A DNA stretch of 64,000 nucleotides, from NCBI GenBank assembly GCA_964644355.1, contig CAZXUW010000005.1:24232-88231 (forward strand), in the 5' to 3' direction. The stretch's first letter is position 1. Every line of letters starts with the position of its first letter. Under the pieces are notes generated by a model. The model was not told the DNA's origin. It searched no databases and saw only the letters and a program-made list of their open reading frames with translations. Positions 44,417 to 57,387 of this stretch are shown here, piece after piece. The DNA comes from an uncultured Bacteroides sp. (GTDB lineage Bacteria; Bacillota; Clostridia; Christensenellales; CAG-917). Both the position numbers and the translations under genes were made by a program.

Positions 44417-45175
44417 TTATTCATCAAGGTACAAAGTGTCTATGTCACTCGAATTGTTTTCGTCTTTATAGCCATCAAATGTGTCTACAACATCATCAGC
44501 ATCAGTTTGATTTTCGCTTGCAAGTGCGATCTCCAGAAGCTTTTTCTTGTCCTCTTCACTTATATTTTCAAGCTTAACTCCCTCTGCTCTCATCTCCTCT
44601 TTTTCAAGTGCGATTTTGTCTTTGATAAAGGAGCCTATGACAAGTGCTATGACAAGACACATGGGGATCACAATGAGCACAACATAGCCGTACCACTGCG
44701 ACAAAAAGCCTCTCAATCCGCCTATAAACAAAGACTTGCGGACATACTTTGCTTTAATGTTGTCAGGATTCAACTGCCAGTTGTCGGCAGAAGGACTATT
44801 GTCACCTTGCGTTCTGAAATATGCAATTGAACCGTCATCATCAAGCACGATTTCAATTATGCGGTGAGTTTCGTTGTAATTGCCGTTCGGTGCCAAAAAC
44901 GTGATAATATCACCAACTTTCAGCTCGTTTACGTCATCCACTTCCTTGCAGATGATCACCTCGCCGGGCTCAATGGTGCCACTCATGCTATCCGTCAACA
45001 CGTCATAAAGCCTATAACCAAAAATTGAAGTTTCTTGTCCGCCACTTCTTTGAATAAGCATAACGGCAACAACCACCACCAAAAACACGAATAGCAAAGC
45101 AACCACCATCGTGGATACAATGTTGTAAATTTTCTTTGTCTTTGATATAGGTTTTTGATCTTCTATTTCTGCCAT
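44417..45175 (-). CDS. sipW: SipW-type (S26B) signal peptidase I, paralogue 1, with extended acidic C-terminal tail
   Basis: N-terminal TM segment, Ser box VLTDSMSGTIEPG, His box ETHRIIEI, and RTQGDNSPSAD. The order and spacing match B. subtilis SipW (LSGSMEP...THRIV...TKGDN). There is a C-terminal TM segment plus a ~65-aa D/E-rich tail. The start is ATG 45175, with no clear RBS. Confidence 0.8.
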   Translation of the reverse strand: MAEIEDQKPISKTKKIYNIVSTMVVALLFVFLVVVVAVMLIQRSGGQETSIFGYRLYDVLTDSMSGTIEPGEVIICKEVDDVNELKVGDIITFLAPNGNYNETHRIIEIVLDDDGSIAYFRTQGDNSPSADNWQLNPDNIKAKYVRKSLFIGGLRGFLSQWYGYVVLIVIPMCLVIALVIGSFIKDKIALEKEEMRAEGVKLENISEEDKKKLLEIALASENQTDADDVVDTFDGYKDENNSSDIDTLYLDE

Positions 45176-45183
45176 ATATGTTT

Positions 45184-45204
45184 GTACGCACACGAGGTGC
45201 GTAC
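45184..45204. other. 8-bp-stem hairpin between the McrC-like and sipW-1 genes
   Basis: GTACGCAC-acgag-GTGCGTAC. The T7 run is on the plus strand only (45205..45211). Confidence 0.6.
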
Positions 45205-45216
45205 TTTTTTTAGAGT

Positions 45217-48024
45217 TTAGTCTTGATCGTCGGAGTCTTTTTCCTCTGCCTTGGTTGTCATGCTGAACACGTCACCAAACGGATCTGTTATGCCACTGTC
45301 CGAGCTGAAGTGTATTCCGCCAACACCGACTTTATCCTCGTCCACGGCTTCAAGTTTGCCCTTTCTTCCCGTCGGTTGTGAATACTTCTGATTGAGCGTT
45401 GTGGGGCTCAATGCGTTGGGATCCTTACGTGGTTTTGACGATTTCTTTTTCTTTGGCGGTTGAGGTTCATTTTCAACATTTTGCGCATCAATCACCACTT
45501 TATCGTCATTTTTGGGCTGTTCATCTGCCGTTTTTGTCAATTCATCGACTTTTTCGTCTTTGACTTCAACGTCTTTTGGTTGTTCCTCGTTGGCAACTTC
45601 TCGTGTAGGTTCCTCCTGCTCGTCAGGCTTCACCTGCTCGACAGATTCTTGCTCTTGAGGCTTTGGTTTGCGGTTATACTTGCGTTTGGGTTTATCCTCT
45701 TTTTTCTCATCGAGATTGCCGAGTTTTGCCCCTTCACCCCAAGGTGTTACACTGCCATCACCCTTGAAGCTTATGCCCATACCTTGAGTATCTTCTATGC
45801 GACCGCCAACGTTTATACGCAATTCAGATTTCGCAACTTCTTGCACTTGTTGTTGCTCCTCTTGCGTATCCTCACTTGCAGACGTGGTTGGTTGTTCAAC
45901 AAGCTCTTGTTCAACCACTTTTGGTTTGCGATTGTATTTACGTTTTGGCTTTTCAACCTTGTTTTCATCAAGATTGCCCAGATTTGCACCCTCACCCCAA
46001 GGCGTAACACTGTCATTCTCTTTGATGTGTACGTCACCGACTGCGACCTTGTTTTCATCAACAGGCGTGAGATCAACCTCTTTCTTCGGCTTATTTTCAC
46101 CACTCCAAGGATCGATTTCCTCATCGGATTTTGCAATACGCACTTTGCCTTTCTTGTGCGGTTTTTCCTCATCGGCTTTAGTCTCTTGGACAGGTTGTGC
46201 AACGTCTGGCTGTTGCGTTTCCACTTCGCTCTCAACTTGAGATACCGGCACGAATGTTTCCATGCTCTCAAGTTCTCTATCAAGCTTCTCGTCTTGCACG
46301 GCTTTTTTACGGCGAGCTTCTTCCATTTCCTCAATGGAAGCATTGATCTTGTCTGTATTCTTATCTTCAAGCTCAAGATTTTCGTGCTTGTCAATCTTGA
46401 TCTTTTCAAGTTTCTTGGCTTCTTCTTCCCTGCGCTTATACTCTGCGATCTTTGCCTTTTGGAAGCTGAACGGATCCATGCCGAAATAGGTTGAGTCACT
46501 CTCAACTCCATTCTTTTCAAGCTCCTCTCTCTGCTTGCGGAATGCCTCGGCACGCTTCTTGATGTCCTCTTTGCGTCTGCGGATACGCTCTTGTCTGTCT
46601 CTCTCATCAAGTTCCTCTTGCTTGATGCGACGATATGACGTGAGACAACGATCAATAGCGTCACGAGCTTTGGCAATTTCCTCTTGCTTAAGCTTATCGT
46701 CGTCAGGACGCTTGAACACTTTACGCACCTCAAACAAGTGCTGATCAAACGTCTCAGCATCCGGCTCGAGGTCGACTTCTTCTTGATCTGCCTTTGGAGG
46801 CATCTCCTTGAGTCTCTCAACCTCAACAGGACGCTCCACAACCACTTCGACTTCTATCTCTTGAGGCTTTTCAATCTCCTCGATTTCAGGCTCTTCAGGC
46901 GGAATTTCAGTGTCGGCATCCTCATCCTCTTGAGGTTTGACCTCCTCGATATTCTCCTGTTCGTCCTCATTCTCCTCCGAATCGTCAAGCTTTTGAGCAT
47001 ATTCGTCTCTTTCAAGCTTGTCTTTGTCAAAGTCCATTTCACCAACACGCAGGAAGTCGGCAAATTCCTTATCTTCCATATCGAAGTCGGTTTCGCACTG
47101 ATCGTACAAGCTTTCAAACACCATCGTGTTGAGTGTGAGCATGCTGTTGAGTCTTGCACTGCTCTCGTCGTCGATTGGGAAATCTTCCACCTCGTCGGAC
47201 GTTGAAAAACCTGCCGTCTGTTGATACGTCTCGATAAACTGCCACAAAGTGAGAGCCTTCTTGAAATTTGGCTCCTTCAAAATGACGTTTGTACGCATGA
47301 TAGGCGGACGAACAGGTGCGGAGTTACGCATCGACTTTGCAAATGACGATGACAAGAAGTCTGTGATAATGCGGTCAATTTTTGCAACACGCTCGATCTT
47401 GGTGAGTGTGTCGGGATCAAGACGCATAATCTCATCAAAGCTTAATTGTGCAAAATACTCCGTTCTATAGGTTATTTTCTTGCTTGGAAGATTAAATCTA
47501 GACTCAACGTCAAGCTCCAAGACGTCCTGTGTTGCGGATGCCTTTTTGATCTTGTCATAACGCATTGTGACAAAGTCCTTGAGCTTGAGAAGCAAGGTGT
47601 AAATAAAGCGGTTTTCATAAATCTCAAAGGATTCTTCCTTTGTGATATTGAGAATTTTTGATGGTGTGACGTCACCCGTTTTCTCGTCAACCTTGGAGAT
47701 CATGTTGGTGTGCTGGGCAAGATATTTGACAGACTCTGTCGATATACTTCTTGCAAGCGAAACGTCAACGATATCCTCCTCTTGGACGATGAATTTTCTT
47801 GGGTTACGCACGATTGTATCGAGATTTGGAAGGATACTTTCAATGGTATCGATCCAATCTATGGAGATGTCTTGTACGAGGCGTTTTTTGGCAAGCTTAA
47901 ACTTGGATACGCCTTTATCTACACGTTTTTTGAATTGCTCATAAAAGCCCTCATCCTTGAGGACTGAAACAATCTTGTTCGCATACGATACGTACACTTC
48001 TCTTGTAATCTTATTGTCAGCCAT
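45217..48024 (-). CDS. McrC-N-terminal-domain-like protein lacking a nuclease, with a ~620-aa charged low-complexity repeat tail
   Basis: 935 aa. Residues ~1-315 look globular and include ESFEIYENRFIYTLLLKLKDF (compare E. coli McrC NEDTLANRIIKSTLAILI). No hhhDxK nuclease motif is found. Residues 316-935 are E/K/D/Q-rich with internal repeats. The gene lies immediately downstream of an McrB-like gene. Confidence 0.6.
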   Translation of the reverse strand: MADNKITREVYVSYANKIVSVLKDEGFYEQFKKRVDKGVSKFKLAKKRLVQDISIDWIDTIESILPNLDTIVRNPRKFIVQEEDIVDVSLARSISTESVKYLAQHTNMISKVDEKTGDVTPSKILNITKEESFEIYENRFIYTLLLKLKDFVTMRYDKIKKASATQDVLELDVESRFNLPSKKITYRTEYFAQLSFDEIMRLDPDTLTKIERVAKIDRIITDFLSSSFAKSMRNSAPVRPPIMRTNVILKEPNFKKALTLWQFIETYQQTAGFSTSDEVEDFPIDDESSARLNSMLTLNTMVFESLYDQCETDFDMEDKEFADFLRVGEMDFDKDKLERDEYAQKLDDSEENEDEQENIEEVKPQEDEDADTEIPPEEPEIEEIEKPQEIEVEVVVERPVEVERLKEMPPKADQEEVDLEPDAETFDQHLFEVRKVFKRPDDDKLKQEEIAKARDAIDRCLTSYRRIKQEELDERDRQERIRRRKEDIKKRAEAFRKQREELEKNGVESDSTYFGMDPFSFQKAKIAEYKRREEEAKKLEKIKIDKHENLELEDKNTDKINASIEEMEEARRKKAVQDEKLDRELESMETFVPVSQVESEVETQQPDVAQPVQETKADEEKPHKKGKVRIAKSDEEIDPWSGENKPKKEVDLTPVDENKVAVGDVHIKENDSVTPWGEGANLGNLDENKVEKPKRKYNRKPKVVEQELVEQPTTSASEDTQEEQQQVQEVAKSELRINVGGRIEDTQGMGISFKGDGSVTPWGEGAKLGNLDEKKEDKPKRKYNRKPKPQEQESVEQVKPDEQEEPTREVANEEQPKDVEVKDEKVDELTKTADEQPKNDDKVVIDAQNVENEPQPPKKKKSSKPRKDPNALSPTTLNQKYSQPTGRKGKLEAVDEDKVGVGGIHFSSDSGITDPFGDVFSMTTKAEEKDSDDQD

Positions 48025-48063
48025 GCTTTTATGAAATTATATACGCACAAAGCGTAGTTGTCA

Positions 48064-49572
48064 TTAGAACAACTTCTTAAGTCTGTTGATGTATTCCTTG
48101 CTCTCTTGCATATTTTCCTCGCCGAAAAGCTCGCTCAAATAGAGGATCAAGCCGTCGATTTCGTCACGGATGTAGGACAAGTTCAATGATTCAAACTTAC
48201 GGAAAATCTTGTTGCAGAGCACGTAGTCGAGACCGTCGATTTCCGTACCGCCACAGCCAACGTAGCTCGGAACAAACTCTTTGAGCTGTTTCACGATACG
48301 GTTGCCAAACGCAAGACGGAAGTGTTCGATAACATAGTCGTCAAGTTGGTTAACCTTGTCCAAAACCTCTTGAGAGACCTTGTAGATCTCTTGAGATTCC
48401 TTGAACATAGCCTCAAGATGCTTGTAGCTGATAAAGATATTATCCGCCCACGGAGCTTCAAATGGAACGCCCTTGCTGTTGATGTTGATAGGCATAGCAC
48501 GGTCGTAAACCTTATCTGAAATAGCAAACGTGGAGTCGTCGTTGTTTGCGGTGCCGATAAACCACATATTTTGCGGAAGTCTAAATCTACCCTTGTCGAT
48601 ATGCTTGGGGTCGTTTGCCCAACCGGACGGAACGAGGTCAACAATCCACTCGTCACGAGAAGGCATTTCGAGAATTGACAACATTTCTGCAAAATAGTAC
48701 TCAACACGCGCGATGTTCATTTCGTCGAGGACGGTGAGGTAAATTTGGTCATTCCAAGTTGCCTCGTACATCTTCTTCAAAACTTCCGTTTCATTGAAAC
48801 GCTTTGTAAATTCGTTGAAGTAGCCGAAAAGTTCGGTACGATCACGCCAAGACGGCTGAACGGAAGCGATGGTTGCGGGGTTGTTGAGGAAGATACCCAT
48901 AGCGTGCGGAAGTGACGTCTTACCTGTACCGGAAATTCCCTGCAAAATCATAAGACGAGAGGTTGACATACCCGCGATAAACAGTCTTATAATACGTGGA
49001 TTGTAATACAATCTCATCCTTGAGCAAGCGAAGTTGCGGAAGCGGTCGCAAAGCTCGGGAAGTGTGATTTCGTCATCGAATACAGGCGGAACGTAGTTCT
49101 CGTAAATCTTGTCGATTTCGGTGAGCTTGTAGAAACGAGACTCGCCTGTTGGAGACTGTTCTTGTTTTTTCTCGCCTTCTTCTTCACCCTCGTAGTTGCC
49201 GATATCACTCACACGCATACCCAAAATACGATCCTTTTCAGCGGACATTTTGATGATTTGCTTTTTGAGGTTGGCACACTCCTCAACGAGGTCTTGCGGA
49301 AGGACTTTGGTCTTGCCCAAGCGAGAGAGCTTGCGAAGTCCCAGGATAGCAAGCACGATGATTGCCACGATAACGGCAACGATAAGTACGATAAAGATAA
49401 TGGCAACCGCCCATTCGCCGGCACCAAAATATTCTGTATAGTTGGAAAAAGCATCGGTGTAGCCGTCGTTGTAGAAGATATGCAAAAATCCCCAGAAAAT
49501 ACTGCCGATTCCCTTGTCGTAGAAGGCACCGAGAAATGCTTTTAGAAATTCAAAAACCAAATTTATATTCAT
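48064..49572 (-). CDS. Membrane-anchored McrB-like AAA+ (AAA_5) GTPase
   Basis: Walker A GISGTGKTS. McrB box LTVLDEMNIARVEYYFAEMLSILE (compare McrB DEINRANLSKVFGELMMLIE). FIGTANNDDSTFAISDKVYDRA (compare MNTADRS..RRF). The N-terminal TM segment AVAIIFIVLIVAVIVAIIVLAILGL is followed by RKLSRLGKTK. Confidence 0.75.
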   Translation of the reverse strand: MNINLVFEFLKAFLGAFYDKGIGSIFWGFLHIFYNDGYTDAFSNYTEYFGAGEWAVAIIFIVLIVAVIVAIIVLAILGLRKLSRLGKTKVLPQDLVEECANLKKQIIKMSAEKDRILGMRVSDIGNYEGEEEGEKKQEQSPTGESRFYKLTEIDKIYENYVPPVFDDEITLPELCDRFRNFACSRMRLYYNPRIIRLFIAGMSTSRLMILQGISGTGKTSLPHAMGIFLNNPATIASVQPSWRDRTELFGYFNEFTKRFNETEVLKKMYEATWNDQIYLTVLDEMNIARVEYYFAEMLSILEMPSRDEWIVDLVPSGWANDPKHIDKGRFRLPQNMWFIGTANNDDSTFAISDKVYDRAMPININSKGVPFEAPWADNIFISYKHLEAMFKESQEIYKVSQEVLDKVNQLDDYVIEHFRLAFGNRIVKQLKEFVPSYVGCGGTEIDGLDYVLCNKIFRKFESLNLSYIRDEIDGLILYLSELFGEENMQESKEYINRLKKLF

Positions 49573-49651
49573 TTTTCAATCGCGCAATAATGGACAGAAA
49601 TTCCCCGTCACGGTAACGGAAGAAACACTCACACGTTTCTGCAAAAATATA

Positions 49652-49689
49652 GCAAAAAGGCTCCACCGTCCAAAAGGACGGAAAAGCCT
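49652..49689 (-). terminator. Rho-independent terminator between sipW-2 and the McrB-like gene
   Basis: Minus strand: AGGCTtttCCGTCCttttGGACGGtggAGCCT followed by TTTTTGC. It starts 5 nt after the sipW-2 stop. Confidence 0.55.
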
Positions 49690-49693
49690 AACG

Positions 49694-50623
49694 TCATTCA
49701 GAATCGCTATCGCTTATGACAGCATCGTCATCGACGTCTTGAACATCACTCTCGCTTTGAGCATTCTCATCCGTAGCGACGTTTTGGTCAGCATCAGATT
49801 GAGAGAGCGAGGCAAGATATTCTTGAGCAAGACGGCGTTTTTCCTCATCGGAAAGAGCATCCACCGTCACAACTTGCTCTGATTGCACCTTGCGTTCATT
49901 TTCAAGCTTTGCGATGACAAGCGTGCGGACAAGCACAAATGCATAAATCACAAACAAAAGGATGAGCGGAAGCACGACAACACAGAAGAAGCGTGTACGC
50001 CCCTGCTCTGGATCCTGAATCCAGTTGGTGAAACCGCCAACATTCTTGAGCACATCGCCATCCGTAGCGGTTGTTCCATCTGACGAACCCCAAGTTGCCT
50101 TGATGTTGGAAGCATAAGTATTGCTTTCAACGTTGCCGATGATGTCATTGTTGCGTTCACTTTCCGGCTTTGCAAGCTCCGCTGCCGCCTCTTGCCAAGA
50201 GTGATCCTGATTGTCACCTCGAGTGACGTATGCAATCAATTTGCCGTTTGTATCAAACTTTTTCGCCACGATTCTGTGGGTGTTCAAAACACCTGTACGC
50301 ACCCTGAACGTGACAACCTGCCCGATTTGGAGCTCACCATCGGTTGTGTAGTCGTATGTTTTGCCGACAATCATATCGTCCTTGTCAAAAGTCGGACTCA
50401 TAGAGTCGGATGCGACCACCATATACACGGTATCTCCAAAAGTAGGCAAACGGAACTCCTCATCACTCGTAGAAGCAATGGTGAAAATAGCCACAACGAG
50501 TGCAAACACGACAAGCACGATACAGCAAGCCGTTGCCACCCAATTGAGGATATTCATCACGTTCTTCTGCCTCGGAGTGAGTTCTTTCTTTTCTCTCTTA
50601 TGAGAGCCTTTTGCTGATTCCAT
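49694..50623 (-). CDS. sipW: SipW-type (S26B) signal peptidase I, paralogue 2, with insertion and extended acidic C-terminal tail
   Basis: N-terminal TM segment, Ser box VVASDSMSPTFDKDD, His box NTHRIVAK, and TRGDNQD. There is a ~60-aa insertion before the C-terminal TM segment and a ~85-aa tail. A GGAAGG RBS is present. Confidence 0.8.
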   Translation of the reverse strand: MESAKGSHKREKKELTPRQKNVMNILNWVATACCIVLVVFALVVAIFTIASTSDEEFRLPTFGDTVYMVVASDSMSPTFDKDDMIVGKTYDYTTDGELQIGQVVTFRVRTGVLNTHRIVAKKFDTNGKLIAYVTRGDNQDHSWQEAAAELAKPESERNNDIIGNVESNTYASNIKATWGSSDGTTATDGDVLKNVGGFTNWIQDPEQGRTRFFCVVVLPLILLFVIYAFVLVRTLVIAKLENERKVQSEQVVTVDALSDEEKRRLAQEYLASLSQSDADQNVATDENAQSESDVQDVDDDAVISDSDSE

Positions 50624-50791
50624 AAAAACCTTCCTATTGATGCTTCTTCGTCCCCGTCCACGACTTATTGCCCCACCGCCACGCCAAAGGCGTAGCCCGA
50701 AAGAAAACGAATGACTATTGACATCACACGAGCCATGCTTATTGCCCTTGAACGGAATGCTCCGCTTTGCTCGAATGACTTTGTTGTATAC

Positions 50792-50809
50792 GTATAGTTA
50801 TAACTATAC
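50792..50809. promoter_or_regulatory. 18-bp perfect palindrome at the predicted TSS (candidate operator)
   Basis: GTATAGTTATAACTATAC is self-complementary over 18 nt and begins ~7 nt downstream of the -10 box. Confidence 0.55.
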
Positions 50810-50815
50810 ATTAGT

Positions 50816-50844
50816 ATTTTACTAGAAATAACACACTATGTCAA
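50816..50844 (-). promoter_or_regulatory. Strong sigma-A-type promoter of the sipW-2 operon
   Basis: Minus strand: TTGACA (50844..50839), 17 nt, TAAAAT (50821..50816). The predicted TSS is ~50809, giving a ~186-nt leader. Confidence 0.6.
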
Positions 50845-50937
50845 TAGTAATTTACAAAACGGCAGTTTTTGTCCGTAAACGCAATGTGACATAAGGCATT
50901 TGCAATCACCATGATGCTGTTGGAGCAATGCGTCAAA

Positions 50938-51162
50938 GTGCCGATTGACGACACCACTATAAAATGTCAAAGATTTCACAGCACACTGTGCTTGAGATAT
51001 AAAAAACGAAAAATAACATACAGAAATAAGGTTTTTTTAGAAAGGGGGCTTTATTTCGATAAGGAGAAAAACGATGAAAAAGAAAGGTTTGCTTATCTCA
51101 ACAATCGCAATGGTTGTTGTGCTGATCGCAGCTCTTACTACATCAACTTACGCTTGGTTTAC
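50938..51162 (+). repeat. Left arm of a 225-bp inverted repeat (promoter + 5'UTR + first 29-30 codons of TasA-like gene A)
   Basis: Identical to the reverse complement of 53063..53287 at 224/225 positions. The single mismatch is at 51143 (TCA Ser versus ACA Thr). Confidence 0.95.
50975..51003 (+). promoter_or_regulatory. Promoter of TasA-like gene A with a spacer palindrome
   Basis: TTCACA (50975..50980), 17 nt, TATAAA (50998..51003). The palindrome AGCACA-c-TGTGCT (50980..50992) lies in the spacer. Confidence 0.5.
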
Positions 51163-52138
51163 TGTGTCAACCACTACGAATATTGATGGTTTTACCGTCA
51201 GCGTAGAAGCCGGTAACGTTATGGCAATTGGTTTGAACGCACAAGGTTATACATCATACAGCGATGCTGCATCCCCAGACAATTTTGTTTCAGGAACTGT
51301 AACCTATACACATGGTGGTGATGATGATGGTGTTGCTAATGGATATTGGACAGGCAACCAAGGCCTTGGTGCATCTATTTCGCATGATATTGTTTGGTCA
51401 ACTCAAAGTAAAGCTGTTGGATTCTCAAGTGCAGGAGCACTTTCAGGTGCAACATATGCAAACACAAAGTTTTATAAGAATGATGGCACAGTTGAAAATA
51501 ATAACGGATCATCTTTCGATTTAGCAATTGCTGCAAATGGTTCCACAACATCCATGGAAGCTCCACGCCTTGCTATTGAAAACAAGAAAACTACAGCTGA
51601 TACCGACGAGTCCACTAATGGTGACTATGTTTATATGTTCCTTGGTGCACAACCAACACAAGCTTTGATGGATAATACAAACATTTTGCATGTTGTCATC
51701 CAACCACAAGGCACAGGCACAAGAATTGGTATGGCCGCAGCTATCCATGTTGCATACAGAGTTAATGGTGGTGATTGGGAAGATGTTGATGTCTATGGTG
51801 CTGCAAACAAACATTATAATGACGAAAGAGCCTCGACAGAAGCTAAAATTTATGGTGATATTACTGGTACAGGCAAATCCAATGGTTTAGATGCAAATTC
51901 TTTGTCATATTCTACGACAACATATCAAACCACTATAACGGGTGCAAAGAGTGTTGATATCCCGTTGACACAATACACCGATGCTACATCAAGTGCACCG
52001 TTTGATCAAATTGAATTGATAATTTATGTTGCAGGTGCAGACAGCGATTGCCTTGACTCAGCAAAGAATGGTTCTATCAGAATTGGCATATTCTTCGGAG
52101 CACAAGAAGCAATCACTTCAAATGAAGGGAATAACTAA
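51074..52138 (+). CDS. TasA/camelysin-like secreted protein A with SipW-cognate-type signal peptide
   Basis: Signal peptide MKKKGLLISTIAMVVVLIAALTTSTYAWFT (compare TasA ...GGGTWAAFND and CalY ...GGGTFAYFSD). The C-terminus KNGSIRIGIFFGAQE resembles TasA QGNSIKLQFSFEATQ. An AAGGAG RBS is present and SipW genes are adjacent. Confidence 0.7.
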   Translation: MKKKGLLISTIAMVVVLIAALTTSTYAWFTVSTTTNIDGFTVSVEAGNVMAIGLNAQGYTSYSDAASPDNFVSGTVTYTHGGDDDGVANGYWTGNQGLGASISHDIVWSTQSKAVGFSSAGALSGATYANTKFYKNDGTVENNNGSSFDLAIAANGSTTSMEAPRLAIENKKTTADTDESTNGDYVYMFLGAQPTQALMDNTNILHVVIQPQGTGTRIGMAAAIHVAYRVNGGDWEDVDVYGAANKHYNDERASTEAKIYGDITGTGKSNGLDANSLSYSTTTYQTTITGAKSVDIPLTQYTDATSSAPFDQIELIIYVAGADSDCLDSAKNGSIRIGIFFGAQEAITSNEGNN

Positions 52139-52160
52139 TAAAACCAAAATTGATAACGAA

Positions 52161-52188
52161 AAAACACGGCTCGATTGAGCCGTGTTTT
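52161..52188. terminator. Bidirectional terminator between the convergent TasA-like genes
   Basis: AAAACACGGCTC-gat-tGAGCCGTGTTTT. Confidence 0.65.
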
Positions 52189-52209
52189 GCGTTATAAGAT
52201 GATTACGAA

Positions 52210-53151
52210 TTAGGTTGAACTTTCTGCTTTCTTATCTGCAATAAAGTTAATTGTTATAACTGACTTAACGTTTGCTGCATTACTATTGCAGTCTTGATCT
52301 TTACCATTGATAAAGAGTTTAATATGGATTTGATGAATTTCACCTTGTGGGACAATATCAGTTCCGTTGCCAGTAATTTCTATTTCATATGTCTTTGCGC
52401 CAGGATTCCAAGTTATATCCGGTATTTCAATTGGATTATAATTGGTTGTACCATTTATTGTTGTCGTTGCACTATGACCCTCGTACACATCAATTATGTC
52501 TGACCAACTGCCATTATCAATTTTGTAGATGAAAGAAATAGCTGCATTCATGCCCAATACTGTTGAAGATGAATCAGGGTTAACGCCTATAACGCATTTT
52601 ACTTTTGTAACATTTTGTTTGGCAGGTGCAACGCCAAATGCAACGTCCAGATAGTCGCCAGTATTGTCTTCACCTTTGATACCATTTGCAACTGCATTTT
52701 CAATTTCGGTTCTTGTAACATCTTGACCGCTACCAGAAGCTTTTACCCAATTCCCTTCAGGTTGCAAAGTTTCATCAATAGTACCCGAAGAATCATTACC
52801 TGCGACATAGGCTGTACCTGTATAAACAGCTTTCTTCATGCCAGCAAGACTCAAACCGGTATCAACCTCAAAACCAAGACCTTCTGTACCATCCCACGCA
52901 TTTTTAGTGATATCATATGAAAGACCAGAACCGCTAACAAATAAATTTTGTCCGATAGAATCGCCTGTATTTATTTTATTTGTTTTGGAAACACCAATTG
53001 TCAAATCAGAGTCAGAAGTAACTTCAAAATTTATTGGCCTAACTTCAGTTTTCGAAGCTGCTGTAAACCAAGCGTAAGTTGTTGTAGTAAGAGCTGCGAT
53101 CAGCACAACAACCATTGCGATTGTTGAGATAAGCAAACCTTTCTTTTTCAT
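52210..53151 (-). CDS. TasA/camelysin-like secreted protein B with SipW-cognate-type signal peptide
   Basis: Signal peptide MKKKGLLISTIAMVVVLIAALTTTTYAWFT, identical to A except for one residue. The mature part is highly diverged from A. C-terminal motif IHIKLFINGKDQDCNSNAANVKSVITINFIA. Confidence 0.7.
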   Translation of the reverse strand: MKKKGLLISTIAMVVVLIAALTTTTYAWFTAASKTEVRPINFEVTSDSDLTIGVSKTNKINTGDSIGQNLFVSGSGLSYDITKNAWDGTEGLGFEVDTGLSLAGMKKAVYTGTAYVAGNDSSGTIDETLQPEGNWVKASGSGQDVTRTEIENAVANGIKGEDNTGDYLDVAFGVAPAKQNVTKVKCVIGVNPDSSSTVLGMNAAISFIYKIDNGSWSDIIDVYEGHSATTTINGTTNYNPIEIPDITWNPGAKTYEIEITGNGTDIVPQGEIHQIHIKLFINGKDQDCNSNAANVKSVITINFIADKKAESST

Positions 53152-53287
53152 CGTTTTTCTCCTTATCGAAATAAAGCCCCCTTTCTAAAAAAACCTTATT
53201 TCTGTATGTTATTTTTCGTTTTTTATATCTCAAGCACAGTGTGCTGTGAAATCTTTGACATTTTATAGTGGTGTCGTCAATCGGCAC
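53063..53287 (-). repeat. Right arm of the 225-bp inverted repeat
   Basis: Reverse complement of 50938..51162 (224/225). It contains the mirrored promoter (53222..53250) and palindrome (53233..53245). Confidence 0.95.
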
Positions 53288-53676
53288 ATTTGCGTAAAGA
53301 TTTGCGATGCGAATCTTTTATGCAATGATATCCCTTTGGGATGATATCCAACTGCTTTGGATTGTGGCATATCTGACAATGCAGACAAGTGCACTTATAC
53401 ATTATGTATATTAATTATAGCCTTTGCGTATGCCAATGTCAACACTAAATTTGTATTTTTGTGCTTTTTCAGCGATTTAATACAACAATTTGTTTTATTT
53501 TTTAATACTGTTGTCGTTTTATCCAACAGATGTATTGCAATTTTCTTGTTGCTCATCAAGCATTTGTTTTGGCTGTTTTGCAAGATTTTATGAGCAAAAT
53601 GCGGATTTCACCACTCTTAAAAGGATATCATCGGCAAAGCCGATATCATTTGCAAGCAATGCTTGCAAGTTTTTTG

Positions 53677-54759
53677 TCAGCTTGCGTAGAAATTCAAGCC
53701 CATCTTGCAGTAGCCACCGATGGCGGAGTCGATGCAATCAAAATCACTGCCCTCAATCCATATGCTGAGATAGCAGTACATGATGTCTCCCTTGGCTAGA
53801 TCAAGACTGTTTTGAAAGACAAATTCGTCAGATGCGAATGGTGTGGTTGCTTTGTAGCCGTGCAATTGTGCGGTCATCTTGGTGTCTGCATCCGCATTGA
53901 GCATGGCATCATAGTCTTTGAGATAGTAATATTTGCCATTTGGATGCACGTTAAGACCGACTTCTCTGTCGTACGCAACGCATTCGATATAGCCGTCCTC
54001 TGCCGTTCTGCCAACGTTGTAGGCATTGTCGGCAAGACGCTCACTGTCACTCAAAGAGGCATATACGTTGATGTTGGTGGCACTCTCCCCATCTTCAAGC
54101 CCGATAGGATTCTTGAGGCTGTATCCCCACATAACTCGCACGGAGTCTTGCAAATCGTGATCGTCAAACTCAAGCGTCATTTCATAATCGACGTGAGCTT
54201 CCTCGTTGCCGTTGTTGCGGAGCATGAAGGTGAATGCTATATATTGCTCGCCATTCATCTCGCCAAGCTCAAACTCGTCGGCATTGAGCAAGGAATATAC
54301 CTCGCTTTCGCTGAGCGGAGTTTCCGTGCCATAGCGTGAATCATAGCTGATGTTCCAGATGTCATCGGGACCGTCGGCGTTGAGGTATGGCGTCCAATAT
54401 TCATTGTCCATGGACAAAGAAATCGACTTGTCCTTGTTGCGATTGTTGACCGTGATACGCACGTTGTTTTCTTCCATAAGCAACAGCATGATGTACACGA
54501 TTGACGTAACCACAAGAGCAAACACAAGCATGATGAGCATCGCCCTCTTGACCTTGGCACGAAGCTCCTCTCTCTTGACCTTTTTGGACGCAACGATACT
54601 GTCCTCCCATTCCTTTTTCAAACGGGCGGTCTCTTTTGCGGAATTGCGAGCACTCTTTTTGCTCGATTTCGCCTTTTTGGCAGATGAGGACTCCTCAAGC
54701 TCATCGTAAGCTTGCTCGTCCATCTCATCCTGCATTCTTTCAATATCGTTTTCGCTCAT
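53677..54759 (-). CDS. Single-pass (type II) membrane protein with an ectodomain ending in the TasA-like C-terminal motif
   Basis: A charged cytoplasmic N-terminus of 72 aa, then the TM segment AMLIMLVFALVVTSIVYIMLLLM, then a ~265-aa ectodomain. The C-terminus CYLSIWIEGSDFDCIDSAIGGYCKMGLNFYAS aligns with A (LIIYVAGADSDCLDSAKNGSIRIGIFFGA) and B. Confidence 0.65.
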   Translation of the reverse strand: MSENDIERMQDEMDEQAYDELEESSSAKKAKSSKKSARNSAKETARLKKEWEDSIVASKKVKREELRAKVKRAMLIMLVFALVVTSIVYIMLLLMEENNVRITVNNRNKDKSISLSMDNEYWTPYLNADGPDDIWNISYDSRYGTETPLSESEVYSLLNADEFELGEMNGEQYIAFTFMLRNNGNEEAHVDYEMTLEFDDHDLQDSVRVMWGYSLKNPIGLEDGESATNINVYASLSDSERLADNAYNVGRTAEDGYIECVAYDREVGLNVHPNGKYYYLKDYDAMLNADADTKMTAQLHGYKATTPFASDEFVFQNSLDLAKGDIMYCYLSIWIEGSDFDCIDSAIGGYCKMGLNFYAS

Positions 54760-54846
54760 GTGTGTCTATTTGGTTTATATATTCATATATATATATCTAT
54801 TTAAGTATATAACGCTTGATCTTGATCGTATGACTCTTGGCGTGAA

Positions 54847-56655
54847 TTAGAACTTATGGTATGTTCCGTCACCTGCAAAGTAGCCGTATGGCACCCATTT
54901 GCCGATCGTGTCGTCAAAATAGCCGTTGTCAACAATCTCGCCGTTGAGGTCTGTGTAGGTGTAGTCTATCCATCTGCCTTCCTCGTCAAAGTAGCCGTCA
55001 TAGACGTTGCCGTCTTTGTCAACCCACTGTGCCTTGTCGTTGTAAGAGCCTTCCTTGGTGACGTCAAACTGCTCGTATTCAACCCAGTTGCCTTCCACAT
55101 CGAAATAGCCGTTGAACACGTTGCCATCCTCGTCAACCCACTGACCTTTGTCATTGTATTTGCCGATAAGCTCCGGCTCACCGTCGTTCTTGTTCTCGAT
55201 ACGCATCGTGATGCCAAATCCGCTCACGCCGGCATCCATGCCAAGCCCACCGAACATGCTGTCACTCTTGTATTCGTTGAAAAGCTTTTCTTCCTTGTCG
55301 AAATCAGCCTTGATTTTCTTGGGTTTCTTTGGCTTTTTGACTTCCGGTTGAGCAGGTCTTATAGGTGCGGATACGCTGTTTTCGTCTTGATCTACGACAG
55401 TCTCTTTCTTCTTGTCAGACGGCTTTTCCTCATCTAATGCTTGCTCGTCCTTGGACTTCTCTTTTTCAGCCTTATCTGCTTTGTCCTCAAGCGGACGATC
55501 TACGCCAAGCTCGCTCTTTTTCTGCGATGCAAAGCTCAATGCCAAAGCGCTCTGCACGTCGCCCTCATAACGCATGCGAGACATCTCGTCAAGAAGCTTG
55601 TTGTCTCTCTCATCTGCCTCGGGTGAGTCTTGCTCGATGAGCTTTGCCTGTGCTTGAACTCTCTCCTCCGCCGCCTTGCGTGCATTCTGCTTCTGCTGTT
55701 CAAGACGCACTTGATATGGCGATTTTGCAAGCTCCGGACGTGGCGATGTGGGCATAACCCTCTCTGCATCATTCTCTTTTTCTTTCTCGATGGCGGAATT
55801 TCTCAATGCCTCAAGCTCGTTTGCAACCGCTTTTTCTTTGGCATCTAGCACCTTTTGGAGCTTCTTGAGATACTGATCTTTCTTTTCTCCGACAGGATCT
55901 TTCAAAAGCAAAAATTCATTGGTAACCCATCTTGAAAGTTTGCTTACCGCCCTACCTGTCAAGAGCTTTATGCCTTCTTTCTTGAAACGCGCGTATTGAC
56001 TTGGTGAGTCAACCCCTTCCATAATCAAGCCGATTTTGTTGCTCTTGCAAAAACTTACAAGCATTGCTAGCACCTTTTTCTTGTTTTGAGCGGTGTCAAA
56101 ATAGCTTGCTTCACATCTCAAATAGTCAAAATTAAACTCCGCAAGCACGTCTAGTGCGTTGTAGTCCTCACCAAACGCCGATGCACAAATTTTGTAGCCG
56201 AGCTTACGCAAACGGTTGTATCTCTTTTTGCCTTCCTCATCAAGCCCCACAAGATTGGACACAAAGAAGGATATGACGAGATTGCTCTTTTTGTAGCCCA
56301 AATCCTTGAGTGTTGAGGTGAGCACGTCAAAATCTTTGTCATTATCCAAAAATCTTGTCGTAATGGGCAGACAATACGTGAGGTTGTCAGGGATAAGGAA
56401 ATTCTCTCGCATAACGAGGTCATAATTGACAAGCTCCTCAAGGGCAATGACGTTAAGCTCGTTGATACGCACGGAATTTTCTGCAATATAAAAATAATTG
56501 CATACGCTCATTCTCCCCAAATACCTGTCGTTGAGAACTTGAAACGCATCAACAAAAACTACCTTCTTGCTCTTGCCGGAAGCTTCAACAACTCCCCTGA
56601 AGAAAAAGTCAATAGGTTTGTACAGCGTTCTTTTTGCGTATGCCGTAGTATTCAT
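54847..56655 (-). CDS. Degenerate EAL-domain protein with a charged linker and C-terminal aromatic/Gly repeats
   Basis: Residues 1-245 follow the EAL-domain layout: YKPIDFF, VDAFQVLNDR, YFYIAENSVRINELNVIALEEL, LRKLGYKICASAFGEDYNALDVLAEFNFDYLRCE and LIMEGVDSPSQYARFKKEGIKLLTG. Most catalytic residues are replaced. Residues 250-490 are K/E-rich. Residues 495-602 contain repeats of YNDK(G/A)QWVD.DGNV..GYFD.EG.W..Y. An AGGTGGGA RBS precedes ATG 56655. Confidence 0.65.
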   Translation of the reverse strand: MNTTAYAKRTLYKPIDFFFRGVVEASGKSKKVVFVDAFQVLNDRYLGRMSVCNYFYIAENSVRINELNVIALEELVNYDLVMRENFLIPDNLTYCLPITTRFLDNDKDFDVLTSTLKDLGYKKSNLVISFFVSNLVGLDEEGKKRYNRLRKLGYKICASAFGEDYNALDVLAEFNFDYLRCEASYFDTAQNKKKVLAMLVSFCKSNKIGLIMEGVDSPSQYARFKKEGIKLLTGRAVSKLSRWVTNEFLLLKDPVGEKKDQYLKKLQKVLDAKEKAVANELEALRNSAIEKEKENDAERVMPTSPRPELAKSPYQVRLEQQKQNARKAAEERVQAQAKLIEQDSPEADERDNKLLDEMSRMRYEGDVQSALALSFASQKKSELGVDRPLEDKADKAEKEKSKDEQALDEEKPSDKKKETVVDQDENSVSAPIRPAQPEVKKPKKPKKIKADFDKEEKLFNEYKSDSMFGGLGMDAGVSGFGITMRIENKNDGEPELIGKYNDKGQWVDEDGNVFNGYFDVEGNWVEYEQFDVTKEGSYNDKAQWVDKDGNVYDGYFDEEGRWIDYTYTDLNGEIVDNGYFDDTIGKWVPYGYFAGDGTYHKF

Positions 56656-56933: not shown

Positions 56934-57021
56934 TTGGTGCCGAAAATCGGGGTCGAACCGATACGATGTTTCCATCGAGGGATTTTAAGTCCCTTGCGTC
57001 TGCCTATTCCGCCATTCCGGC
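56934..57021 (-). tRNA. tRNA-Leu (anticodon UAA)
   Basis: Reverse complement GCCGGAATGGCGGAATAGGCAGACGCAAGGGACTTAAAATCCCTCGATGGAAACATCGTATCGGTTCGACCCCGATTTTCGGCACCA. It has a long variable arm and the anticodon loop CTTAAAA. Confidence 0.9.
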
Positions 57022-57097
57022 ATGTTAAGTATGTGTTAAGTTGTTTGCTTGAGCGTGGTGGTCTTTGTGCAGACGCCGGGATGAACACCGTTCATTT

Positions 57098-57119
57098 GTC
57101 TGCCTATTCCGCCATTCCG
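57098..57119 (-). other. 22-nt duplicate of the tRNA-Leu 5' acceptor/D-arm segment (tRNA fragment)
   Basis: GTCTGCCTATTCCGCCATTCCG occurs at 56998..57019 (inside tRNA-Leu) and again at 57098..57119. The second copy has no anticodon arm, T-arm or 3' acceptor partner. Confidence 0.6.
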
Positions 57120-57226
57120 TCATTGTGCGACTGCTTTTCGTATTTTAGCACAAGCGTTTTTATTTGTAAAGAACTAGCATAAAACTAGCAATAAAAAAAT
57201 CCCAAACAAAGCGTTTGAGATTCTTT

Positions 57227-57300
57227 TGGAGGCATCACCCAGACTTGAACTGGGGGTGAGGATTTTGCAGACCCTTGCCTTACCACTTGGCTATGATGCC
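57227..57300 (-). tRNA. tRNA-Cys (anticodon GCA)
   Basis: Reverse complement GGCATCATAGCCAAGTGGTAAGGCAAGGGTCTGCAAAATCCTCACCCCCAGTTCAAGTCTGGGTGATGCCTCCA. The anticodon loop is CTGCAAA. Confidence 0.9.
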
Positions 57301-57312
57301 GGATTTTGCTTG

Positions 57313-57387
57313 TGGAGCGGGAGACGGGATTCGGACCCGCGACTTTCACCTTGGCAAGGTGACACTCTACCACTGAGTCACTCCCGC
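57313..57387 (-). tRNA. tRNA-Gly (anticodon GCC)
   Basis: Reverse complement GCGGGAGTGACTCAGTGGTAGAGTGTCACCTTGCCAAGGTGAAAGTCGCGGGTCCGAATCCCGTCTCCCGCTCCA. The anticodon loop is TTGCCAA. Confidence 0.9.

Follow-up and report, generated by a model that had tools for sequence, protein, structure and literature searches.

A predicted membrane-anchored McrBC-like GTPase pair is conserved together with SipW-type signal peptidases and an unannotated family of putative cargo proteins

Among the GTPases of the McrB type, a clade has been named CoCoPALM in a single paragraph by Bell et al. (eLife, 2024), while its analysis was deferred to "a separate, forthcoming publication". In that paragraph the clade is described by an NxD-motif McrB GTPase, an FtsB-like transmembrane/coiled-coil segment, genes of the signal peptidase family, and a McrC homolog that is devoid of a nuclease and has a long charged or coiled tail. 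A literature search found no later paper that uses the term, and the accessible part of the eLife supplementary text does not contain details on CoCoPALM. Here we describe a locus of this type from an uncultured species of the Christensenellales (contig CAZXUW010000005.1; the analyzed stretch of 64,000 nucleotides (nt) is called the window). An McrB-like GTPase and an McrC-like protein are encoded between two SipW-type signal peptidases, accompanied by three proteins of a putative cargo family and a degenerate EAL-domain protein (Table 1). A preliminary description, made from the letters of the window, stated that no such system had been described, which is out of date in the light of the CoCoPALM paragraph. 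The locus is a member of CoCoPALM, because it has the signature N343-N-D345-D, a predicted transmembrane/coiled-coil anchor, and SipW genes on both sides; these features, as well as the nuclease-less McrC-like protein, agree with the published description, and no conflict with the definition was found. Judged from the sequences, the coupling of the McrB-like/McrC-like pair to SipW peptidases and their cargo is real and conserved. The best reading is that this McrBC-derived pair would operate at the cytoplasmic membrane together with the SipW signal peptidases, as a GTPase-controlled machine for fibers or other proteins of the surface. Compared with the accessible text of Bell et al. (2024), several elements are new, namely the cargo family with its anchored paralog, the degenerate EAL protein as a recurrent first gene, a conserved motif in the SipW tail, McrC::SipW fusions, and an inverted repeat.

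The pair shares with McrBC of Escherichia coli an AAA+ core over about 210 residues, the Walker A and B motifs, an Asn/Asp signature, an arginine finger, and a partner with the McrB-activating domain DUF2357, as well as two neighboring genes in the same order. However, a transmembrane anchor takes the place of the DNA-binding N-domain, the signature is NxD instead of NxxD, the PD-(D/E)xK nuclease is absent, and the neighbors are secretory genes and not restriction-modification genes. As far as the accessible text describes the CoCoNuTs, they have the GTPase branch, coiled-coil fusions, and the frequent loss of the McrC nuclease in common with the locus. In contrast to the locus, which has no nuclease, is predicted to be membrane-anchored, and includes SipW, CoCoNuTs are always associated with a nuclease (HEPN or other), are cytosolic, and are predicted RNA-targeting defense systems. 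The secretory half of the locus resembles tapA-sipW-tasA of Bacillus subtilis and sipW-bsaA of Clostridium perfringens, in which a dedicated SipW-type peptidase is also encoded beside exported proteins. With tapA-sipW-tasA it further shares a signal that is predicted to end at a site of the type aromatic-Ala↓aromatic-Phe (here and below the arrow denotes the cleavage site) and an accessory anchoring paralog that is comparable in role to TapA. Unlike in TasA operons, the cargo has no detectable homology to TasA or Peptidase_M73 in sequence or fold, two SipW proteins with extra cytosolic tails are present, and a GTPase pair, which TasA systems are not known to contain, is obligate. Polymerization of TasA by strand donation is established, according to the accessible part of the respective publication (PMC9674648).

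The coupling was examined in a scan for relatives in which each GTDB species was represented by one genome. Relatives are encoded in at least 596 genomes. The best 80 loci belong to Christensenellales, Acutalibacteraceae, Ruminococcus, Eubacterium ruminantium FB3002, and Bacilli/Erysipelotrichaceae-like metagenome-assembled genomes (MAGs); cultured carriers are Ruminococcus flavefaciens MC2020, Ruminococcus sp. FC2018, and the E. ruminantium strain. Neighboring genes, on the same strand and nearby, were counted with family hidden Markov models (HMMs) in the 46 species loci that extend at least 6 kb to both sides of the McrB-like gene. All 46 loci have an McrC-like gene, 45 have SipW, 42 have cargo genes (zero to six copies per locus), and 32 have EAL. 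The neighborhood survey, which had been proposed in the preliminary description, thus favors linkage. An intact GTPase core of the NxD branch, a nuclease-less DUF2357 partner, two SipW peptidases, cargo, and EAL are conserved together in dozens of species. The gene order is kept across Christensenellales, Oscillospirales, Lachnospiraceae, and Bacilli-like MAGs, and the occurrence of the same order in dozens of species puts the arrangement far beyond chance. Because the composition is kept while the chromosomal neighbors change, the cluster seems to move and to persist as a unit. The identity to the window is 99% for "Firmicutes bacterium CAG:238" and 96% for Christensenella sp. UBA767. For example, in a Ruminococcaceae MAG with an McrB-like protein of 63% identity the order is EAL, anchored paralog, secreted paralog, SipW, McrB-like, McrC-like (with a long K/E-rich tail), four more paralogs, a second SipW, and a giant leucine-rich repeat (LRR) protein with the signal …SFA↓WY.

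Two side observations were made during this survey. Two loci are on contigs that are labeled Bacteroidaceae or Bacteroidales (L005, CAZRHE010000003.1; L015, CAKUYO010000060.1), with clusters of 84% (GTPase) and 61% identity, respectively. This suggests that the labels are binning or labeling errors and that taxon labels of MAGs are unreliable. In the Ruminococcus/Lachnospiraceae group (L041-L065), two small conserved genes are found about 100-800 nt downstream of SipW-B in 10-12 species, one for a protein of about 150-160 amino acids (aa) with a single transmembrane segment and one for a coiled-coil protein of about 75 aa (…SRSQSALVQAILLQE…WFNKYTGEI…).

The assignment of the McrB-like AAA+ protein in the preliminary description was substantiated by matches to E. 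coli McrB structures (2.6e-7 over about 210 residues) and to NF008457, the McrB model of NCBIfam (1.5e-7). AAA_5 is matched by 17 of 17 aligned family members, and the AAA+ core matches the PADLOC defense-candidate model PDC-M26A with 3.6e-36. Invariant in 17 diverse homologs are the Walker A motif GISGTGKT, the Walker B motif LDEMN, N343-x-D345, and R358. The signature in the window reads G340-T-A-N343-N-D345-D-S-T, and position 346 varies between D, E, and Q in the 17 homologs; in the accessible text, the branch signature has been given as "NxD, usually followed by E or a second D" (Bell et al., 2024). The protein starts with 54 acidic and aromatic-rich residues, which are followed by a single strong transmembrane segment (aa 58-76), RKLSRLGKTK, and a short heptad-like charged helix (aa ~95-125); a linker connects these to the AAA+ core (aa ~190-500). 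Also the replacement of the DNA-reading N-domain by a transmembrane anchor was borne out: the first 190 aa consist of the transmembrane segment, a predicted coiled coil, and an acidic linker, and no DNA-binding domain was detected in them with Pfam and NCBIfam. The predicted topology is N-out/C-in, which would place the GTPase in the cytosol. Thousands of relatives share the core alone and have other N-domains. At locus L085 (8001-9941, protein P0080) the McrB-like protein is 646 aa long through an exact internal duplication of about 140 aa (EWVVDIIPNSW…FVPAYVGTG twice), which is either an assembly artifact or a recent tandem duplication.

The partner protein had been described as an McrC N-domain with a charged tail in place of the nuclease, and both parts of this description hold. 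The N-terminal part of the McrC-like protein matches DUF2357 (PF09823) at aa 61-163 with 2e-8 and 34.2 bits, compared with a gathering cutoff of 23.3. PF09823 is carried by all but one among the McrC-like homologs listed, and their NCBI name is "DUF2357 domain-containing protein". The N-domain of about 330 aa is followed by an acidic low-complexity or coiled tail of about 600 aa. In the window, aa ~330-935 contain 17% E, 13% K, 10% D, and 6% P and have a net charge of -55; this tail is charged, in part helical-looking, and in part proline-rich. Neither a PD-(D/E)xK nuclease nor any other domain was found past aa ~330 by searches with Pfam, NCBIfam, PADLOC, and PDB profiles, and a transmembrane segment is not predicted. 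Long heptad-like tails rich in K, E, and A are present in the homologs at loci L001 and L085, and that of L085 weakly matches Rod_CreS. Within the tail in the window (45217-47000), two near-identical repeats of about 35 aa were noticed, SVTPWGEGA.LGNLDE.K..KPKRKYNRKPK, with a related third copy near the C-terminus; they may be short linear motifs within an otherwise disordered acidic tail.

Both signal peptidases were recognized as SipW-like in the preliminary description, and the profile searches agree. SipW-B matches NF046067 with 2.6e-31 and TIGR02228 with 81.8 bits (cutoff 51.85). SipW-A is more divergent: its match to TIGR02228 (3.1e-13, 49.9 bits) is marginally below the cutoff, and NF046067 is matched with 2.9e-12. 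The motifs of the catalytic region, SMSG/SMSP, THRI, and GDN, are present in both proteins. Each has two transmembrane segments, at aa 29-47 and 172-190 in SipW-B and at aa 32-50 and 214-232 in SipW-A. The cytosolic tail of SipW-B is acidic, and the cytosolic C-terminal tail of SipW-A carries a conserved motif. This motif of the AIEEYLA type, (E/D)EE.K(R/K).AIEEYLA.Q, is located past the second transmembrane segment and was found by regular-expression matching in 60 of 74 SipW proteins that are encoded upstream of McrB-like genes; the version in the window is EEKRRLAQEYLAS. In some SipW tails the motif is repeated two to three times, and the tails of the downstream SipW proteins are different and lineage-specific. 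We infer that the cytosolic SipW tails are candidate docking sites for the GTPase complex. At loci L075 and L082 (Clostridium sp. CAG:567-like), five SipW paralogs are clustered in the 10 kb upstream of the McrB-like gene.

At the loci examined the McrC-like gene always directly follows the McrB-like gene, and in the window the open reading frame (ORF) of SipW-B starts 23 nt past the stop codon of the McrC-like gene. In five species of the R. flavefaciens group the McrC-like protein and SipW are encoded by a single ORF of about 990 aa (L070 11685-14657; L047, L049, L061, L073). The order in the fusion is McrC-like N-domain (aa ~10-315), tail, transmembrane segment, and complete SipW domain (aa ~750-990), and SipW-B corresponds to the SipW domain of the fusions. 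The topology of this Rosetta-stone fusion fits a protein whose McrC-like part lies in the cytosol and whose peptidase lies outside. The counts in the 46 loci together with the fusions in five species tie the McrB-like/McrC-like pair functionally to SipW and its cargo, as had been proposed before.

The TasA/camelysin label, which had been given to the two secreted cargo proteins, is without profile, PDB, or fold support for these as well as for the type-II membrane protein. For the three cargo proteins of the window no match to Peptidase_M73 or any other Pfam, NCBIfam, or PDB entry was found, including a phmmer search of PDB. When 62 cargo homologs were scanned one by one with Pfam, no match was obtained, and their profile matched neither TasA nor any other PDB sequence. 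An hhalign comparison of the cargo with B. subtilis TasA yielded a probability of 0.2% (with a manually entered TasA sequence). The AlphaFold2 model of cargo protein 1 (pLDDT 85, pTM 0.82) is all-beta with a signal helix, and aa 22-38 are unstructured with values below 50. TasA was absent from the top 50 in a Foldseek search of PDB with this model, which retrieved generic beta-sandwiches (SdrG, carbohydrate-binding modules), all with TM-scores below 0.35; part of the model is weakly similar to carbohydrate-binding modules (2xom, probability 0.94, TM-score 0.34). A search of the viral library BFVD was equally non-specific. Since the sequence, profile, and fold searches were negative or non-specific, membership in the TasA/camelysin family was rejected, and the label "TasA-like" should be replaced by "SipW-type cargo of an unannotated family".

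The three cargo proteins of the window form one BLAST/HMM family, and 158 homologs were found, none of which has a Pfam domain. Their common C-terminal motif, already noted in the preliminary description, was verified as W-x-E-G-x-D-x-x-C, and G283, D285, D287, and C288 (G-x-D-x-D-C) are invariant in 62 homologs. The N-terminal segment, MKKKGLLISTIAMVVVLIAALTT(S/T)TYAWFT, is near-invariant. The signal site of cargo protein 1, …TTTTYA↓WFT, was likened to the SipW-dependent class; with TIGR04088 it scores 12.2 bits, below the cutoff of 19 bits, and a family member at locus L085 scores 22.3 bits, above it. Past the predicted cleavage site is an alternating hydrophobic strand, WFT..V..I.F.V, which is unstructured in the AlphaFold2 monomer, as would be expected for a donated strand. 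The first 29 residues of the two secreted cargo proteins differ at one position, while the remainder is 32% identical. The membrane-anchored paralog has a basic cytosolic N-terminal tail of about 70 aa, a transmembrane segment at aa 75-93, and an external beta-sandwich ending in IWIEGSDFDC, and it is devoid of the A-W-F cleavage site. Homologs of it, with basic N-terminal tails of 20-80 residues, are encoded upstream of SipW and the McrB-like gene in most loci, where they generally stand at the start of the cluster. A strict division of the cargo into cleaved and membrane-anchored proteins by a regular expression was dropped, because some of the paralogs that come first in the operon have an A↓xYF-like site. 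Giant proteins of more than 1300 aa with LRR_5 or Flg_new repeats end some clusters (L001 16349-20250, L012 7407-11738, L085 15451-17941). Their signal, …(S/I)(F/I)A↓W(Y/F), is the same as that of the small cargo proteins, and they may be tip adhesins.

The assignment of the degenerate EAL protein was upheld by a match to PF00563 (1.4e-20, 74.1 bits, cutoff 31.3). Compared with BlrP1, E272, D302, and D303 are replaced, K323 is changed to R, and Q379 is changed to T. The protein has no transmembrane segment and consists of the EAL domain (aa ~34-246), a charged linker, and three C-terminal W/Y/D-rich repeats. Degeneration is the rule across loci: the Glu is kept in 4 of 54 proteins, the Lys in 13 of 54, and the Asp-Asp pair in about half. 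The EAL gene, where present, is usually the first gene of the cluster, and it was counted when it lay on the strand of the McrB-like gene, within a range of 8 kb upstream and 9 kb downstream. The C-terminal ~100 aa (54847-55150) are formed by the three tandem repeats, YNDKGQWVDEDGNVFNGYFDVEGNWVEY and variants thereof, for which no family was found apart from a chance-level match to the EAGR box (E 0.95). In the Lap system of Pseudomonas (LapD-LapG-LapA), the cleavage of an adhesin is controlled from inside out, and LapD spans the membrane. The locus is similar to it in logic only, as it combines a degenerate EAL protein, an extracytoplasmic protease, and an N-terminally held surface protein. 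However, the protease and the adhesin are not homologous, the EAL protein is devoid of a transmembrane segment, and a GTPase pair stands between EAL protein and peptidase.

The two secreted cargo genes are bracketed by a 228-nt inverted repeat with two mismatches (99% identity) and 1900 nt between the arms. Each arm comprises 139 nt upstream of its cargo gene and extends 89 nt into the coding sequence, where the signal peptide is encoded. A consensus promoter match is located directly outside the right arm and is directed into the cargo gene. Similar repeats are present in two other Christensenellales species (L005, 376 nt at 99% identity; L006, 116+56 nt), and these comparable near-identical repeats indicate that the identity of the repeat is maintained. 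Because the two subunit genes have an identical inverted 5' coding segment, an inversion would exchange the expressed body, which suggests that recombination between the arms would swap the subunit behind the putative strong promoter. A recombinase gene is not found among the genes neighboring the repeat. In Moraxella, the Q and I pilins are exchanged by inversion (Piv), and similar invertible pilin switches exist. The locus resembles this pilin inversion in having two alternative subunit genes with an identical inverted 5' coding segment about 2 kb apart. It differs in that no recombinase gene is near, that the arms take in the 5' untranslated region, and that its inversion is a prediction from the repeats. 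An identical cargo protein was found on a single public contig, a Logan contig of 1448 nt (SRR17221322_498300), which ends at both arms.

These observations can be joined to a mechanism, the GTPase-controlled, SipW-dependent assembly of a surface polymer, to which we give a slightly better than even chance. Six McrB-like subunits would form a ring beneath the membrane on six transmembrane/coiled-coil stalks. The N-domain of the McrC-like protein would plug the pore of the hexamer and stimulate GTP hydrolysis as in McrBC (6hz4, 6ut6), its tail would tether SipW-B, and the AIEEYLA tail of SipW-A would dock on the cytosolic complex. GTP turnover would gate or position the SipW cleavage of signal-anchored cargo. 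Cleavage past ...TYA would free the N-terminal beta-strand WFT..V..I.F.V, which would join subunits by strand donation into a surface fiber or layer, with the uncleaved membrane-anchored paralog as the base. In some species, the giant adhesins with LRR or Flg_new repeats, which carry this signal as well, would also be incorporated. The degenerate EAL protein would be a cytosolic input, possibly for cyclic di-GMP (c-di-GMP), and the inverted repeat would let the cell swap which of the two major subunits sits behind the putative strong promoter. A more far-reaching proposal is that an McrBC GTPase has been exapted as the engine or gate of a new surface-filament machine of monoderms, with a ring tied to SipW, strand-donating beta-sandwich subunits, an anchored base, EAL input, and subunit variation by repeat recombination; this is tentative, and we rate it as somewhat less than an even bet.

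Several points weigh against the assembly of a polymer by this machinery. The members of CoCoPALM are known from sequence alone. The polymerization of the cargo is hypothetical, and neither fold nor profile searches connect it with TasA, archaeal bundling pilins, or other known pilins; the best pilin match of the cargo model is the archaeal bundling pilin 7ueg at rank 17 (probability 0.51, TM-score 0.29). Four of the 46 loci do not contain any cargo gene, and in some lineages (L070, R. flavefaciens) a single cargo gene is found near the cluster, which would suit one processed membrane protein just as well as a fiber. The AlphaFold2 model of the McrC-like N-domain is modest (pLDDT 68), its most conserved stretch (aa 79-130) is below 50, the model matched no McrC structure in Foldseek, and the PDB profile search matched low-complexity tails alone. 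Because the structural confirmation was thus negative, the McrC-like assignment rests on Pfam and gene context. The similarity of the anchor to FtsB is marginal, as Pfam DivIC matches one of 17 McrB-like sequences in HMMER (E 0.012). Inversion was not observed: the pattern of the flipped junction had no match in metagenome contigs, and the control with the orientation of the window also had none. Orientation variants are hard to detect, since assemblies break at the inverted repeat. To our knowledge, Sec-exported strand-donating fibers such as TasA need no cytosolic nucleoside triphosphatase (NTPase), and the role of the GTPase is without precedent.

The closest rival differs from polymer assembly in polymerization alone. 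A surface protein held in the membrane would be processed or released in a regulated way, without any fiber, by an inside-out signaling device with a logic like that of LapD-LapG-LapA. The EAL protein would sense a cytosolic signal, the GTPase pair would pass it across the membrane to SipW, and SipW would cleave or spare the anchored beta-sandwich protein and its secreted paralogs, which would be adhesins or carbohydrate binders. The most constant set of genes (EAL, anchored paralog, SipW, McrB-like, McrC-like, SipW) would suit this explanation, as would the single cargo gene at the R. flavefaciens loci, the weak similarity of the cargo to 2xom, and the degeneration of EAL in most loci, as in c-di-GMP receptors such as LapD. 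However, the two to six cargo paralogs in a locus, which share a nearly invariant N-terminal strand region, have the look of a polymer with major and minor subunits, and so have the giant adhesins that carry the same signal and the repeat reminiscent of antigenic variation. EAL is absent from about 30% of the loci. We regard processing without a fiber as unlikely, but of appreciable weight. Improbable is a membrane-acting anti-phage McrBC derivative (abortive infection or exclusion) that is embedded in a surface locus or uses surface proteins as sensors. It is true that McrBC and its NxD relatives, the CoCoNuTs, are defense systems according to the accessible literature, that the AAA+ core matches a PADLOC model, and that thousands of relatives with other N-domains share this core. 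Yet neither the pair nor its conserved neighbors contain a nuclease or effector domain, PADLOC did not match the McrC-like protein or any neighbor, and the obligate linkage and fusion to SipW are without known precedent in defense. In addition, the composition is stable across orders at 50-96% identity, and the housekeeping flanks and the ordinary G+C content are unlike those of defense islands. The reading as a defense island was rejected on account of the missing effector, the flanks, and the G+C content.

A role as an accessory of cell division or envelope remodeling seems even more remote. An FtsB-like anchor would recruit the GTPase to the divisome, and SipW would process septal or wall-associated proteins. 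FtsB homology of the N-terminal fusion has indeed been reported in the accessible text of Bell et al. (2024), one family member weakly matches DivIC, and in Ruminococcus the cluster is followed by genes for small conserved proteins of the membrane and coiled-coil types; but the FtsB similarity is marginal, divisome genes are not linked to the cluster, and a cargo number of zero to six together with giant adhesins points to surface display. The idea that an McrBC remnant came to lie beside a SipW/cargo locus by chance, in one genome only, has nothing in its favor beyond the a priori oddity of the combination, and it is refuted by the gene order in at least 46 species-level genomes, the relatives in at least 596 genomes, and the gene fusions, so that its probability is practically nil. 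CoCoPALM would be the first restriction-type AAA+ GTPase that acts on the cell envelope instead of nucleic acid, and the first surface system to depend on SipW and a cytosolic NTPase alike. Relatives occur in at least 596 species-level genomes, and the system is widespread among the Clostridia of gut and rumen, the adhesion and surface structures of which are poorly understood. The parts list (cargo and anchored paralog, EAL protein, SipW tail motif, McrC::SipW fusion, and the putative invertible pair) makes the system testable in the cultured carriers.

Table 1. Features of the CoCoPALM locus, with positions in the window.
Feature	Position	Strand	Basis
SipW-type signal peptidase "B" (SipW1), 258 aa	44417-45193	-	NF046067 and TIGR02228
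McrC-like protein, 935 aa	45217-48024	-	DUF2357 (PF09823)
McrB-like GTPase, NxD branch, 502 aa	48064-49572	-	matches to McrB in PDB, NF008457, AAA_5
SipW-type signal peptidase "A" (SipW2), 309 aa	49694-50623	-	TIGR02228 and NF046067
Inverted repeat, left arm, 228 nt	50935-51162	.	sequence comparison
Secreted cargo protein 2 (putative), 354 aa	51074-52138	+	same family as cargo protein 1
Hairpin between the convergent cargo genes, 12-bp stem	52161-52188	.	likely bidirectional terminator
Secreted cargo protein 1 (putative), 313 aa	52210-53151	-	SipW-type signal and beta-sandwich model
Inverted repeat, right arm, 228 nt	53063-53290	.	99% complementary to 50935-51162
Sigma-70-type promoter match TTGACA-17-TATAAT	53414-53442	-	12/12, consensus match only
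Membrane-anchored cargo paralog, 360 aa	53677-54759	-	cargo BLAST/HMM family, one transmembrane segment
Degenerate EAL-domain protein, 609 aa	54847-56676	-	PF00563

All eight ORFs of the preliminary description were recovered; the ends 45175 and 56655 given there are internal ATGs of the same ORFs. Seven ORFs are on the minus strand, and the gene for cargo protein 2 is on the plus strand. The flanks were confirmed as well, with topA, dprA, and comM below 44.2 kb and genes for tRNA-Leu, tRNA-Cys, and tRNA-Gly at 56935-57387, beyond which follow ispA (polyprenyl synthase) and then xseB/xseA. Since only the three closest relatives have comM and dprA next to the cluster, these genes were rejected as parts of the system. 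The G+C content of the gene block (0.37-0.48, compared with about 0.44 for the whole window) is ordinary. A further sigma-70-like promoter match (11/12) is located at 48036-48064 on the minus strand in the 39-nt gap between the McrB-like and the McrC-like gene, where it overlaps a small hairpin (48042-48056); the two together may represent an internal promoter or an attenuator.

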